Below are positions 31,381-59,373 of a stretch of DNA of 64,000 nt, piece by piece. The notes beneath the pieces were generated by a model, which was not told where the DNA came from, did no database searches, and was given only the letters and a program-made list of their open reading frames with translations. How positions within the stretch are numbered: position 1 is the stretch's first letter; every line of letters starts with the position of its first letter. Source of the DNA: Octopus vulgaris (Eukaryota); contig OX597829.1 of the NCBI GenBank assembly GCA_951406725.2, forward strand, positions 33,170,001 through 33,234,000, written 5' to 3'. Made by a program: the position numbers and the translations under genes.

Positions 31381-32492
31381 CAGAAAATTCTTCAGAAAGA
31401 TATATAAATGTGTAAAATAATTATTGTATTAGAAATATAAATATATATAAATATATGTAAATATGTATAAGTATAAATATATAATAAACATGACAGTTTA
31501 AAATTTAATAGTTTAAAATTAGGTTTTTAAAACATCTTACGATCGTTTCGCAAAAACATTGTCTCTATGATGGAATCCTGAAGAACATGAGGAGATAATA
31601 CGTACGTTTAAAGACGGTTATAGTTCATGGGAGTTGGACTACGACTGGGACTTACTTCCAAGTTACACAACTTATGATAGGCTATTAGAGGAAACGAGCT
31701 TTGACATGTTAGAAGGATCGGTTTTAAAAGGTAGAAAACAGGGCTGCTCGAAAGTGGGGAGAGTAGATCCATTTCCATTTTTCATTTTCATTTTTCGTTC
31801 ATATTGTCATAATTAAACAATTTTTTTAATATGTCCCACACGTCTTGTATTGTTCCGTCTATGTACGCTCCTTGTGGGCAATAAAGAAATAAATTATACA
31901 AATTTAATTATGGATTACTGCAGAAGACTTACCAAGGAGGCATATGAGTATTTCAAGATTCTCATACTAAAGTGCTCTTACCAAACTCAAAAACAGTAAC
32001 TTTTAATTTATATTTCAAACAAACACCATTTTCCCATATTACTTCTTATTTTAAAAAAAACTACCATTTGATAAATTATACAAACCTCACATTTTATATC
32101 TCTGAGGAGCAGAAGTATTGTCTATAAATGTTTATCAATATAGGATTCCATTATAGAGACAAAACTTTTGCGAAACGATCGTAAGATGCTTTAAAAACTT
32201 AATTTTAATCTATTAAATTTCAAACTGTCACATCTATCATATATTTATGCTTATATATATTTACATATATTTATATTTTTAATACAATAATTATTCTACA
32301 CATGTATATATCTTTCTGAAGAATTTTCTGATATTAATTTCCTGATATTATTAACAATATATTATATATAACCACTCGTATTAAATGTATAAATATTTTA
32401 ATAGTATCAATAATTTCATACAAAAGAGCACTCACTGTAAGTTTAGTATATAATATTTTCATAGAATATATTTAACTGAAGATTTATATATT
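31381..32492 (+). mobile_element. (TA)n-flanked fold-back HHR element
   Basis: Arms 31381-31588 / 32143-32330, ~550-bp spacer, extra right tail; no long ORF. Confidence 0.85.
32098..32187 (+). ncRNA. type I hammerhead with elongated stem II
   Basis: atct CTGAGGA gcagaagt..acttttgc GAAAC gatc GTA agat; intact core. Confidence 0.9.
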
Positions 32493-32969
32493 TACATATG
32501 TGTGTGTGTATATATATATATATATATATATATATATATATATATATATATACTTATACATACATACACCCACACTCTACGCATACACACACGAACACAC
32601 ACATGCACTACAAACAACATACACACATGATACATATAGTCCTTTGTTTTTTGACCAGGCTTTGACCTGGCTTGACACAAACAGCTAGCAGTCATCACGA
32701 CAGCTGGCTTTGTCATTGCCTTATTCACCAAAAATACACACACACACACACACGCACGCACAAACACACTTGTCATCTTGCACACACACACACACACACA
32801 CACACACACACACACACACAGGCATTCCTTTTTTGGGAACTCTCTTGCATTATAAAACCATATTTCAACTACCTCCAAATTCTGTTCTTTCAACATGTGA
32901 TCTCTTAAGCACCACCAGCTCAAATATTTTCTCCTCTGTCTTCCCTCCTTGGGACCTTTCCTTATCCTT

Positions 32970-33004
32970 GTTTCCGACGAAGAGCTCCGCTCGAAACGTT
33001 AAAC
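32970..33004 (+). ncRNA. minimal hammerhead (CCGACGA variant) in a PLE 3' end (32820-33108)
   Basis: gttt CCGACGA a gagc tcc gctc GAAAC GTT aaac. Confidence 0.75.
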
Positions 33005-33453
33005 CCTCCTTCCCTTCTTTCCTGAGCGTCAATAATACTTTAATTGTTCCACGTCCTGCGTTGCTGTTTTTTTCTCTTTTTTTCTGTGTTTTCTTGTTTG
33101 GATTAACTATATATATATATATATATATATATATATATATATATATATATATATATATATATACATATATACATATACATACATACATATATATACATAC
33201 ATAATATATATATATATATATATATATATATATATATATATATATATATATATATATATATATAGATAGATAGATAGATATAGATATAGATATATATACG
33301 GGTGTGTGTGATTGTGTATAGAAGAATATTTTAATAAAAGGAATTCCAACCTTGTCTGATTTTCCCGTTTTATTTACAATCTTATAATGATATAATGTAA
33401 TATAATATAATAGAATAAAATAAAATAGTAGAATGTTAAATGTTCATTCTGAT

Positions 33454-33498
33454 TGAACTAGTACTTTCATGCATTAAATTCTGCAATCTTCAGGTTCA
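33454..33498 (-). ncRNA. type I hammerhead
   Basis: tgaac CTGAAGA ttgcag aattta atgcat GAAA gtac TA gttca. Confidence 0.8.
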
Positions 33499-33638
33499 TG
33501 TAGTAGTGGTGACAGTCATGCTTCACAAATTTTGACTGTAGCGAGACGGTTAAATGGCTTAAGAGATAGTTTAAGGCACAGATTTAACCATCTCGCTACA
33601 GTCAAAAATTGTGAAGCATGACTGTCACCACTACTACA

Positions 33639-33683
33639 TGAACCTGAAGATTGCATAATTTAATGCATGAAAGTACTAGTTCA
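33639..33683 (+). ncRNA. type I hammerhead
   Basis: tgaac CTGAAGA ttgcat aattta atgcat GAAA gtac TA gttca. Confidence 0.85.
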
Positions 33684-56800: not shown

Positions 56801-57129
56801 TATATATATATATATATATATATATATATATATATATATATATATATAAATATACTCTAGTGGTAGAGTAATATGCTTTAAATAAAGTATATAATATATA
56901 ATATGTAATAATGAAGGGTGAAATTAATTAATTTGGAATAATTATCAGTTTTTACTGAGATCTCCCTTTTAGTAGAAGAAATAGCTATAACTCTTTGACT
57001 GCTATTTCTAAATTGGTATGTGGTAAGGCAAGTTGCCAAACCCTTTATTGCTTAGTATATATATATATATATATATATAATATATATATATATATATATA
57101 TATATATATATATATATATATATATATAT

Positions 57130-58948
57130 ATATATATAAACTACGTATGTGGAAAATCGGTATGTGTTTGTTTGTGGCGTTGTTAGCTAACTCTTCCGAT
57201 ATCGTTTTGTTGATTTTGATGAAACTTGATAGCTGAGTAAAACTCATGTCTGGAAACTTCGTGACATACTTAGATTGTTGAAAAAATTCGATAATACGGT
57301 CCCTGGAAGGGATCTTTATACCTACCTCATATAATTTATTTTTTAAACACCCAAGGGAAATAACCCATAGCACCTGAAGTTACAGTTGTTAATTTTTAGC
57401 AAAGCAATCAATATTTGATTCTCACGATCAGCGGACCTAATTCTGCATTTCACTACTCACAGTTTTCAACTGCTAAACCTTATTATTGCACTTTCTTGAT
57501 GCATATACACTTTCAATGCCCATAACTCCAATAATTCTGCATTCTTCCAGTTAAAAGTTTTCCATGACAGTACATAAATCTTTGATTCCAGAAACATATT
57601 TAATAATAATGAACTCATACTTTGAATGTTTAAAATTCTTAAAAAATGAAACCACTTTCACATCACATTCAGTTTGGACACCCTGTATCATTTATACTTA
57701 TTTTACAAAGCATAATATTTATTGCTTATTTACAGTTTATACAACATTTTCATGAAACTAATTGAGCCATCGCATTTAGAAATATTTTACAGGTTTCATT
57801 GTTTATGTTCGATTACTTTGAATATTAATTTTTTGTGTGTTCAATTTCTAATTTTTGCAGACAATATCACTCATGTGTCAAACCTCGTGACATACTTAGA
57901 TTGTTGAAAAAATCGCTAATAGGGTCCCCTCCACCATGGATCCTTCTATCTAACACATATTACTAATATTTTATTTAAACAACCCAAGGGAAATAACCCA
58001 TATCACCTGCAGGTTTTAGCAAAGCGATCAATATTTGATTCTCACAATCTACCGACCTAATTCTGCATTTCACTACTCACAGTTTTGAACTGCTAAACAT
58101 TATTATTGCACTTACTTAATTTGAATCTTAACCCTTAAAGACTTCATTCATACATTTCTATACATACATACTTTTTTGAATGACCATTACTCTGATGATT
58201 CTACATTTTTACAGTTACACTTTTTCCATGACAGTGGATAAATTTTTTATCCCACAATGTATTTGTAGTGGCTTCATGCAGGCATAGCGTGGATTTGATC
58301 TTTGATTGCCAAATTTCACTTAACACTTCAACAGTGCTTTTCTCACGGTAAAACAACAGTTTTTCTGTGAATGACAGCAGTTATACATTTCCCAGATGCC
58401 TTTGCTAAGTTGAATAATGTCTTTGCCACTTAACCCTTCTAACCTCTTCTAGGCCACCAAGGGAGATAACAGACTTCCAATGAAATCATTTGTTCTCAAC
58501 AATATGTCTATTCTTCTGGCTGCTTTTCAATAGTTATAAAAACATGAACTCCATAAGCTAAAGGCAGTTACTGAGAGCAAACATCAGTGAGTGTGAAAAT
58601 TTTTATTATTGCACTTTCTTAATTTCATTCTTAAACATTAAACACTTCATTCATATATTTATATACATATATACTACATTTTTATATTACTTTTAATAAA
58701 TTATCCTTCATAAAGTTCGCCTTTAAAATGCCATGGCAAGTCAGAGTACTTTCTTGCCAACCTCCGAAAACCTATCTTGCCAACCTGCAACCATCTCTCC
58801 CTCCTCCAGCTGACAGTTTTTGTACTTTTTCATGATGGAAAATACACCTTTTGTGACAGTTCTAACGAAATTTCTTTCTTATATCAGAGTAATAAGGCGT
58901 TTCAATAGAACATCTTTACCCCTGGGAATTACCGGGTACACCAGCTAG
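57130..58948 (+). mobile_element. non-autonomous Helitron with internal duplication
   Basis: 3' hairpin ccc..ccggg + CTAG at 58945-58948; 57259-57497 duplicated at 57885-58117. Confidence 0.65.
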
Positions 58949-59017
58949 TATATATATATATATATATATATATATATATATATATATATATATACACATA
59001 CATACGTAAATACTACG

Positions 59018-59058
59018 CTGCATTGATAAAGGGCAACAACCCTGAAACATGTCTGCAG
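59018..59058 (+). ncRNA. minimal hammerhead with two core substitutions
   Basis: ctgca TTGATAA aggg caacaa ccct GAAAC at GTC tgcag. Confidence 0.7.
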
Positions 59059-59287
59059 ATGTCTGACTAGCAAGGTGAAGCGGCTGACCTCCCCTGTTTG
59101 AAGGTTTGTAATGGACGCAGGTTCGTGTGTCAAATAGCTAGCTAGAGGCGATGGCCTCTTGGAGCTAATCAGCGACAGCTTTAGTCTTATATTTATAGAC
59201 TACCATATTAGTATGGCGATAACAATATATATATATATATATGAATAAATAAATGGAGTTTAACGTAGGTGTAAATCAAATATTTTT

Positions 59288-59373
59288 ACTTTCGACACAT
59301 GTTTCGAAAATTCCACTGATACTATTCAAAAGAATAAATGATATAAACAATGCAATCTTCTCTTCAGGAAAGT
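59288..59373 (-). ncRNA. type I hammerhead with elongated stem II
   Basis: actttc CTGAAGA gaagatt..aattttc GAAAC atgt GTC gaaagt; intact core, 6-bp stem I. Confidence 0.9.

Follow-up and report, generated by a model that had tools for sequence, protein, structure and literature searches.

The DNA examined here is a stretch of 64,000 nt from Octopus vulgaris (assembly GCA_951406725.2, contig OX597829.1, positions 33,170,001 to 33,234,000, forward strand), referred to below as the window. It is A+T-rich and crowded with microsatellites and retroelement fragments. Among these lie six hammerhead ribozyme motifs with a very long stem II, each near the 3′ end of a dispersed high-copy repeat family. 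The families are named F1 to F6 in the order of their motifs along the window; a first look at the genome gave 755 to 2,571 candidates per family, which are not copy numbers. Four of the families can be assigned to the Hydra clade of Penelope-like elements (PLEs). The long-stem-II form is real, abundant and apparently undescribed. Both the ribozyme, whose activity is predicted here, and the clade of retroelements are known, and what is described is a variation in structure.

Architecture, detection and abundance of the motifs

A type I hammerhead core is present at each of the six sites, with 55 to 86 nt separating the CUGANGA and GAAA boxes and with a palindromic stem III of the dimer type (Table 1). 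This confirms the original prediction of six sites with widely spaced boxes and a long imperfect hairpin, which had been placed by the outer ends of stem I. The boxes C3-U4-G5-A6-N7-G8-A9 and G12-A13-A14-A15.1 are present in 6/6 window copies, and the core is intact in 20, 30, 28, 28, 23 and 28 of 30 copies of F1 to F6, respectively (157/180 in total). In each core, GAAA is followed by a 6-nt palindrome and the UH site, stem III being an 8-nt self-complementary sequence, and a stem I of 3-6 bp closes the junction. The cut site U16.1-H17 reads GUA or GUC in all six family majorities, and stem I covaries among the relatives of F4. Stem II is closed by G10.1-C11.1 directly at the core in F1, F2, F5 and F6 and one base off the core in F3; in F4, two U-U oppositions precede the G-C closure.

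Folded alone, every spacer forms one long unbranched imperfect hairpin with 20-31 predicted pairs. The z-scores of these hairpins against shuffled sequences were -4.55, -4.28, -1.14, -0.93, -2.28 and -3.32 for F1 to F6, and on account of their values the hairpins of F3 (45037) and F4 (46092) are not more stable than shuffles. With flanks included in the fold, only F2 (34346) was clearly below its shuffles. There is no short loop II for the tertiary contact with loop I made by fast canonical hammerheads; the first interruption of the helix is found 3-11 pairs from the core and has no common sequence, and an internal loop may provide a contact instead.

A strict descriptor detected four of the six motifs and had zero matches in all 200 block-wise dinucleotide shuffles, and a looser one detected five (shuffle mean 0.02, maximum 1). 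The copy at 45037 (F3) was missed by the strict descriptor because its stem II begins one base off the core, and the copy at 46092 (F4) was missed by both because G16.2, which is G in the family majority, is A here. The covariance models of Rfam gave no match at gathering score in the window, and at E<=10 no hammerhead model was among the 142 matches between 31500 and 60000. Furthermore, one published core search limited the spacer to 7-17 nt (PMC8557442). The expectation that motifs of this kind evade searches built for short stems was thus borne out.

Minimal metazoan PLE hammerheads (PMC4209133; reviewed in PMC6765202) have, like the motifs described here, a type I core, a short stem I and a palindromic stem III requiring a dimer, and they likewise reside in pseudo-long terminal repeats (pseudo-LTRs) as thousands of mostly solitary copies of diverse families (PMC4209133). 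They cut weakly and as dimers (PMC4209133). Their stem II is short (up to ~8-11 bp), and a helix II of 7-8 bp was called “larger than usual” (PMC4209133), in contrast to the 20-31 predicted pairs over 55-86 nt in F1 to F6. Stem III of the octopus motifs, with 6 nt between A15.1 and U16.1, also differs from that of the minimal PLE hammerheads (PMC4209133). In a survey of hammerheads from all domains of life, stem II was commonly as short as two pairs (PMC3088659), and 235 hammerhead loci were detected in the giant squid genome by a covariance-model search (PMC6962438). For published Hydra-clade motifs, ~9-26 nt are given between the boxes (~23 in Hydra-1_oBim) and 7-8 nt as stem III span (PMC8557442), whereas the octopus lineage has a 6-nt palindrome and mostly stems of 40-100 nt.

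The nearest precedents are the spike-moss elements PLE-X1_sMoe and PLE-X1_sTam with ~48-53 nt between the boxes, and the “HHR_half_core” of Naiad elements, where core halves are 35-50 nt apart in eight Naiads, cephalopod ones included (PMC8557442). These belong to other clades and are flagged in that report as single deviating cases, with neither family covariation nor copy counts in the portions accessible, where the Naiad half-cores are not called ribozymes. The Poseidon element PAc of Anolis (Frangieh et al. 2024, PMC11167929) has a PLE hammerhead near the element ends and two 3′ ends defining a tail, as here; it differs in clade and in that its open reading frame (ORF) starts inside stem II, while in the long-stem octopus families traced to an ORF the hammerhead is located 0.2-3.5 kb behind it. 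Non-LTR retrozymes, proposed to be derived from PLEs, also carry type I hammerheads in animal repeats (PMC7229834; bioRxiv 10.64898/2026.07.22.740005), but are short tandem arrays without ORF, in contrast to the dispersed 3′ fragments found here, with an ORF upstream in four families. In the literature searched, long-stem-II hammerheads of octopus or Hydra PLEs are not described, although the supplements of PMC4209133 and PMC3088659, subscription papers and Repbase/Dfam may show such forms.

The abundance of the form was estimated by scanning the 2.8-Gb assembly for an exact pattern with 6-nt stem III, with reversed patterns as controls. Spacers of 9-39 nt occurred in 18,110 cores (control 1,523), spacers of 40-70 nt, the largest class genome-wide, in 40,872 (1,643), and spacers of 71-101 nt in 11,473 (1,295). 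Long spacers (40-101 nt) thereby sum to 52,345 cores vs 2,938 in the control. The ~49,000 above control make up about three quarters of the class with 6-nt stem III and are three times as numerous as the short-spacer ones. Not every match is a ribozyme: among sampled loci, stems I and III were also present in 261 of 360 matches of a slightly relaxed pattern. Sequence clustering of these 261 motifs, which were deliberately enriched, gave 44 clusters, and the spacer is at least 38 nt long in 34 of them. Among the 34, at least five basal closing pairs were found in 27 (6.9 expected), z was below 0 in 28 and below -2 in 18. Motifs resembling those of F6 and F2 with their long stems were also seen in contigs from sequencing runs coded as other organisms. 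Such contigs carry no information on transcript ends, strand or abundance and bear on neither expression nor cleavage, and a look-up of RNA data sets containing the F6 stretch listed none.

Table 1. Positions of the six hammerheads and of parts of their carrier elements, counted from the first letter of the window
Feature	Position	Strand	Details
Hammerhead F1	32097..32188	+	stem I 5 bp; CUGAGGA 32102-32108; stem II 32109-32171 (63 nt); GAAA 32172-32175; palindromic stem III to 32182; predicted cut after 32183 (GUA)
Hammerhead F2	34343..34453	+	stem I 3 bp; CUGAAGA 34346-34352; stem II 34353-34438 (86 nt); predicted cut after 34450 (GUC)
Hammerhead F3	44955..45041	-	stem I 4 bp; CUGAAGA 45037-45031; stem II 45030-44971 (60 nt); predicted cut after 44959 (GUA)
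Hammerhead F4	46011..46098	-	stem I 6 bp; CUGAGGA 46092-46086; stem II 46085-46029 (57 nt); predicted cut after 46017; G16.2 -> A
Hammerhead F5	54478..54579	-	stem I 3 bp; CUGAAGA 54576-54570; stem II 54569-54493 (77 nt); predicted cut after 54481 (GUA)
Hammerhead F6	59288..59373	-	stem I 6 bp; CUGAAGA 59367-59361; stem II 59360-59306 (55 nt); predicted cut after 59294 (GUC)
F1 inverted copy, 5′-truncated	31377..31579	-	hammerhead 3′ half and 3′ end
F1 forward copy, 5′-truncated	31893..32370	+	3′ boundary approximate; 755 first-look candidates genome-wide; no ORF linked
F3 insertion	44917..45859	-	between two (TA)n tracts; forward copy on - strand and inverted pieces; no ORF linked
F3 inverted hammerhead 3′ half	45663-45859		within F3 insertion; ~80-nt tail
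F4 3′ fragment	45975..46702	-	ends in (TA)n; decayed Hydra-type endonuclease upstream in longer copies elsewhere
F5 3′ fragment	54324..54686	-	in a longer copy elsewhere, Hydra-type endonuclease C-terminus ~2.1 kb upstream
F5 inverted copy	54685..55047	+	hammerhead CUGAGGA at 54751; stem II deletion, GAAA box lost
F6 ORF 3′ part	59578..60310	-	C-terminal GIY-YIG endonuclease, CxxC..E..N..CxH; one premature stop; ends ~210 nt before hammerhead
F6 reverse transcriptase fragment, inverted	60334..60498	+	
F6 3′ end, inverted	60503..60745	+	hammerhead 3′ half, 3′ terminus, optional 146-nt tail; adjoins (TA)n

Carrier elements and their kinship

The copies of each family have a common 3′ end and are 5′-truncated, and the motif lies 38-360 nt before the element 3′ ends. 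Two classes of 3′ end precede (TA)n in all six families, located at approximately +200/+328 (F1), +189/+360 (F2), +38/+115 (F3), +38/+120 (F4), +148/+228 (F5) and +52/+200 nt (F6) from the cut site. In F6 the optional tail is one 146-nt sequence. Optional tails measure ~75-170 nt (window 60600-60745 and 45765-45859; L151-L180), several times the 30-40 nt described for PLEs (PMC8557442), and they should mark alternative start sites of reverse transcription. In 145 of 163 copies, (TA)5 follows the motif within 600 nt at family-specific distances; because the genome is rich in (TA)n, it is the clustering of these distances which provides the evidence for insertion into (TA)n. Optional tails, inverted 5′-truncated copies and (TA)n targeting are signatures of PLEs (PMC8557442; PMC11167929), and inverted partial copies stand beside F1, F3, F5 and F6 in the window.

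Direct tandem pairs were found at only four places among the sampled loci, inverted pairs being commoner. Tandem hammerheads comprise three copies with a 534-nt period (L271:1574-2642), direct and inverted F6 copies at 1090 nt (L189:6884-8761) and a decayed second F1 motif ~370 nt upstream of an intact one (L391, upstream of 747). At these three loci a single transcript might be cleaved, or the repeats might represent arrays resembling those of retrozymes. The six window copies, 5′-truncated and with no second intact sense copy adjoining, are probably inert passengers.

A Hydra-type ORF is located upstream of the hammerhead in F2, F4, F5 and F6. Longer copies of F2 and F6 encode a reverse transcriptase (RT) followed by a GIY-YIG endonuclease, the Pfam GIY-YIG match of F6 being weak (E 0.0099), and the decayed endonucleases of F4 and F5 are continuous with untranslated regions (UTRs) of more than 2 kb. 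For F1, the upstream walk ran into another element, and for F3 nothing was reached but a piece of endonuclease, with (TA)n and unrelated DNA lying between it and the family. The F2 RT carries SDKTS, i.e. DKT replacing DKG, aligns to Hydra-type RTs without an insert in the RT fingers, and in a by-eye comparison matches the published Hydra-1_Obim motif by motif. The CxCX5C linker is present in F4 and absent from F6, and its second C is Y or F in three F2 copies. The endonuclease motif CxxC..E..N..CxH is complete in F2, F5 and F6, and F4 retains CxxC..E..N with a decayed end. DKT, CxxC..E..N..CxH and the CxCX5C of F4 are listed as Hydra-clade motifs by Craig et al. 2021 (PMC8557442), so that the traced octopus elements belong to the same clade by their protein motifs; the hammerhead after the ORF, (TA)n targeting, inverted 5′-truncated copies and tails are common to both.

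The octopus lineage departs from the published elements in its 3′ UTRs, which exceed 2 kb in F2, F4 and F5 (L181:1160-3450, L384:602-4138, L429), are very A+T-rich and contain internal duplications. Even 5′-truncated, F2 exceeds 4.8 kb, compared with a length generally below 3 kb for the Hydra clade, which is described as a tendency and not a rule. In the F2 ORF, the RT and endonuclease parts are set apart by a long insert rich in Asn. The F6 endonuclease (L186:8540-9116; window 59578-60310) is devoid of the cysteine linker to which (TA)n targeting has been ascribed, and 29/30 F6 copies still end near (TA)n. Some families are young, with copies of F2 and of F6 being 96-99% identical, and the RT of one studied family is 95% identical to a protein labelled Octopus sinensis.

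The RTs of F2 and F6 are 46% identical, and F2 shares 34-42% with Hydra RTs from metagenomes. In an unrooted RT tree of 40 rows, F2 and F6 group with three other fragments of this genome and one unnamed protein (SH-like approximate likelihood ratio test, SH-aLRT, 100). In an unrooted endonuclease tree of 44 rows with long branches, F2, F4, F5 and F6 stand on one side of a 92/92 branch, with 35 metagenome rows and a canonical Hydra family of this genome on the other side. Together, the two trees place these families in one divergent Hydra-clade lineage. The stem II sequences of F1 to F6 form six separate blastn clusters. The description of the motifs as six unrelated families therefore stands for the stem II sequences and fails for descent, and an independent recurrence in unrelated families is not supported, four of the six having been traced to one lineage. 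Convergence in unrelated families was rejected on the basis of these trees, unrooted and long-branched as they are; a single origin of the long arm is likely. A Naiad origin of F2, F4, F5 and F6, considered owing to the published “half-core” cases, was rejected because the endonuclease is C-terminal.

Pairing, length and sequence of stem II

Conserved pairing across copies, on which the proposal of a role for the long helix depended, was found with two-sided changes in relatives of F6, F4 and F2. Among 12 relatives of F6 (81% mean column identity), 86.4% of cells are paired compared with 78.4% after shuffling (0/500), with two-sided changes at 7/12 basal pairs; the result was similar on a model-fitted alignment with 28 distinct rows. 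The 12 relatives of F4 gave 82.8% vs 75.7% (0/500), again with two-sided changes at 7/12 basal pairs, and their tip helix is 90.5% paired with a two-sided change at one of seven pairs only. The F4 structure counted was set by hand, as the RNAalifold consensus missed the basal helix because registers differ between subfamilies. For 12 relatives of F2, the values were 90% and 84.2% (0/500), and two-sided changes were also found at 3/7 pairs of a third helix, situated 22-28 nt away from the core. Slid controls were 30-49% paired. Bulges and internal loops of the helices are retained across subfamilies, and many one-sided wobble swaps keep the pair.

In contrast to the pairing, stem II sequence and length are apparently not selected, as judged from the copies compared. 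Two pairs of sister families with homologous tails directly behind the motif differ in stem II length, with 19 vs 39 nt (85% identity over 175 nt) and 39 vs 77 nt (77% over 164 nt). The comparison was restricted to pairs whose alignment begins immediately after the motif, most other flank similarities being neighbouring short interspersed elements or microsatellites. Among relatives the length ranges from about 15-16 to more than 100 nt, and tips lengthen by A+T-rich palindromes and (TA)n, reaching 123 nt in one copy. No 5- or 6-mer was common to 31 distal stems beyond chance (p ~0.8). The DNA copies of stem II show no A>G excess on the sense strand (basal A>G 13/1050 vs T>C 13/1230; distal 7/2370 vs 14/3300), a result that covers only editing copied back into DNA.

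Outside this lineage, short stems prevail. A metagenome scan yielded 79 loci with Hydra-type RTs, 39 of which have a hammerhead, comprising 40 distinct motifs; a scan with a single protein returned nothing. The boxes are 7-25 nt apart in 39/40 motifs, with a stem III span of mostly 7-8 nt, which together with a published table ending at ~26 nt upholds the premise that typical PLE hammerheads have a short stem II. The exception (L459:5149; 64 nt, 2.8 kb past the ORF, 2-nt stem III, not one hairpin) is probably due to chance. Among the sampled loci of the octopus genome, the spacer is below 30 nt in 22/22 motifs with 2-nt stem III and mostly ~30 nt in the 7-nt canonical Hydra type. As the metagenome and published Hydra motifs and the other motifs of this genome are short, the long arm marks one lineage and neither the clade nor the genome.

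Short hammerheads also occur in the window itself. An inverted pair at 33387-33750 (CUGAAGA at 33493 on the - and 33644 on the + strand), inside a 169-nt inverted repeat, has an 18-nt stem II and a 4-nt palindromic stem III, the layout corresponding to the usual inverted ends of PLEs. Additional short hammerhead-like cores lie at 32974(+), 15566(-), 55629(-), 56658(+) and 19647(+), four of them with C at position 4 (CCGANGA), and those at 55629 and 56658 have a 7-nt stem III span as in canonical Hydra motifs. A canonical Hydra family of this genome (L105/L159) has the C4 core too, with a 31-nt stem II. Some metagenome Hydra motifs show core variants, in which the first box has gained a base, one of its bases is altered, or U3 and A8 are swapped (L456:2353-2740, L514:2520-2740, L494:2103, L521:117).

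Dimer folding and the role of the long arm

The self-duplex of the 8-nt stem III palindromes amounts to -6 to -11 kcal/mol. In a single copy, stem III can be closed by only two strong pairs around a four-base loop, whereas a pair of copies can build a duplex of 8 bp, the dimer through stem III being 7-12 kcal/mol more stable than two separate monomers. Folded as a homodimer without constraints, the majority motif of the family gives a double hammerhead in F1, F3 and F4 and, with shifted stem I, in F2; in F5 and F6, the double hammerhead is within 0.2 and 2.2 kcal/mol of the best fold, respectively. By these folds, the ribozymes are predicted to cut only as pairs, in keeping with the weak, dimer-dependent cutting reported for minimal PLE hammerheads, and cleavage itself is a prediction. 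Cutting stem II in silico to 4 bp and a tetraloop lowered the probability of the basal, i.e. the four core-closing, pairs from 0.38-0.90 to 0.00-0.31.

Since the extension raises the predicted probability of the core-closing pairs, alongside the dimer fold, we read the long arm as a clamp free of sequence requirements, in which pairing matters, and which would have been gained in one lineage and left with a tip free to change. We assign this reading a probability of about 0.58. Of the roles originally suggested for the helix, it retains stabilisation, for which the support consists of in-silico folds (homodimers and shortened stem II). A transcript with two sense copies, as in tandem pseudo-LTRs, or two separate transcripts would pair via the 8-nt palindromes to form the double hammerhead, tandem direct copies permitting cleavage within one transcript. 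The double hammerhead would then cut after GUA or GUC, probably slowly or with the help of the element's protein, as reported for other PLEs. In a single, rapidly evolving lineage, stem II may have become longer on one or a few occasions, after which its tip could have grown and shrunk by slippage and deletion, with selection on pairing rather than on sequence. With the extension in place, the basal pairs would have been free to become weaker and reliant on its support.

Several observations weigh against this reading. The clamp result is a folding prediction and follows in part from the choice of basal pairs, and the predicted unpairing of the core improves with the extension only for F1, F2 and F5 and becomes worse for F3. 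The 18,110 short cores (9-39 nt) have the same stem III, and a clamp is therefore not needed everywhere. Stem II length is uncorrelated with GC content (rho -0.10, p 0.51), so that the arm is not a simple compensation for A+U richness, and the pile-up of lengths at 50-69 nt (154/261 motifs of the enriched sample) is not explained by a generic clamp alone. The covariation is good but not formal evidence, because the shuffles ignore relatedness and the structures were read from the same sequences, and apical helices covary weakly (2/6 pairs in F6 relatives, 1/7 in F4 relatives). With regard to the single lineage, the trees are unrooted, with long branches for the endonuclease, and F1 and F3, although they show both classes of 3′ end, flanking (TA)n and partial copies in inverted orientation, were not linked to an ORF.

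The main rival, on account of the protein-assisted hammerhead of the Anolis PLE, is a specific handle for the RT-endonuclease of the element, which would bind it, chaperone the ribozyme or position the RT start, recognising it by shape and co-evolving with it in each family. We consider such a handle unlikely, even though, in the only PLE characterised in vitro, the protein assists the hammerhead and reverse transcription begins at a stem-loop within the RNA (PMC11167929). Pairing preserved up to 28 nt from the core and the clustering of lengths, at 50-69 nt in the enriched sample and with 40-70 nt as the largest class genome-wide (40,872), would suit it; families without any common sequence, two- to four-fold length differences between close relatives and Hydra elements of other organisms with 7-25 nt stems would not. 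Moreover, the RT start points, as marked by the element ends, are found outside stem II, at 38-360 nt downstream of the predicted cut. The long helix might alternatively serve as a double-stranded substrate for A-to-I editing. Cephalopods edit their RNA heavily, and helices of 20-31 predicted pairs would be appropriate targets, but the DNA copies, which record only editing copied back into DNA, lack the sense-strand A>G excess, and this explanation seems extremely improbable. A specific role in RT binding or editing, as proposed at the outset, is thus not borne out, given the missing common sequence, lengths of 16 to more than 100 nt among relatives and no A>G excess.

The hairpin could also be an unselected by-product of RT fold-back or template switching and of slippage in A+T-rich palindromes, at a place where the hammerhead tolerates insertions. 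Inversions are indeed frequent in these elements, as illustrated by the inverted partial copies beside F1, F3, F5 and F6, and a number of tips consist of nothing but A+T palindromes or expanded (TA)n, with up to 123 nt. Template-switch correction of imperfect palindromes may also produce changes resembling compensatory ones. Bulges and internal loops that are kept, together with one-sided wobble swaps, would be unexpected if one arm had been copied from the other, and about three quarters of the above-control cores with 6-nt stem III are long, which makes this origin quite unlikely. That the motif no longer cuts and persists as a structural RNA element of the pseudo-LTR appears very unlikely. 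For the Anolis PLE, insertion in vitro was reported to be unaffected by catalytic mutations, and RNA-seq reads with an end at the cut site were absent (PMC11167929); minimal PLE hammerheads cleave poorly even as dimers (PMC4209133). The octopus core boxes, UH site, stem I and stem III palindrome are nevertheless kept in dozens of families that differ in their palindromes, with a covarying stem I and with stem II sequences of no detectable similarity.

A more far-reaching suggestion, which we regard as doubtful, is that the long stem II is a functional module of one Hydra-clade lineage, acting as a docking arm for the RT-endonuclease recognised by shape or as a replacement for the chaperone role of the protein. 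If this were true, the arm would couple cleavage to retrotransposition and may have helped the lineage to reach ~50,000 copies in dozens of families, and the apparent absence of hammerheads from some PLE clades would be due in part to this blind spot, as with the “half-core” of Naiad. In its sister families, some of them young, the genome provides one ribozyme in graded form, with stem II lengths from ~15 to more than 100 nt, which makes the role of stem II and dimer cleavage directly testable. The ~49,000 long-spacer cores above control, of a form unmatched by Rfam in the window and excluded by short-spacer descriptors, represent a large annotation gap, and counts of animal hammerheads as well as statements on PLE clades without them may need revisiting.

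Two other types of element were observed in or near these repeats. An unrelated element, whose gag-like ORF has a CCHC zinc knuckle, is joined directly with its 3′ end, at its AATAAA, to F1-like hammerhead sequences at four of 24 loci (window 31576-31890; L432, L436, L437). The junctions involve divergent F1 variants and could reflect targeted insertion or a composite element. In addition, a different non-LTR retroelement with RT-like frames, which we take to be of the RTE type, occupies 5619-7794, 21741-23917 and 63625-64000 of the window, two of the copies being inverted and 91-94% identical.

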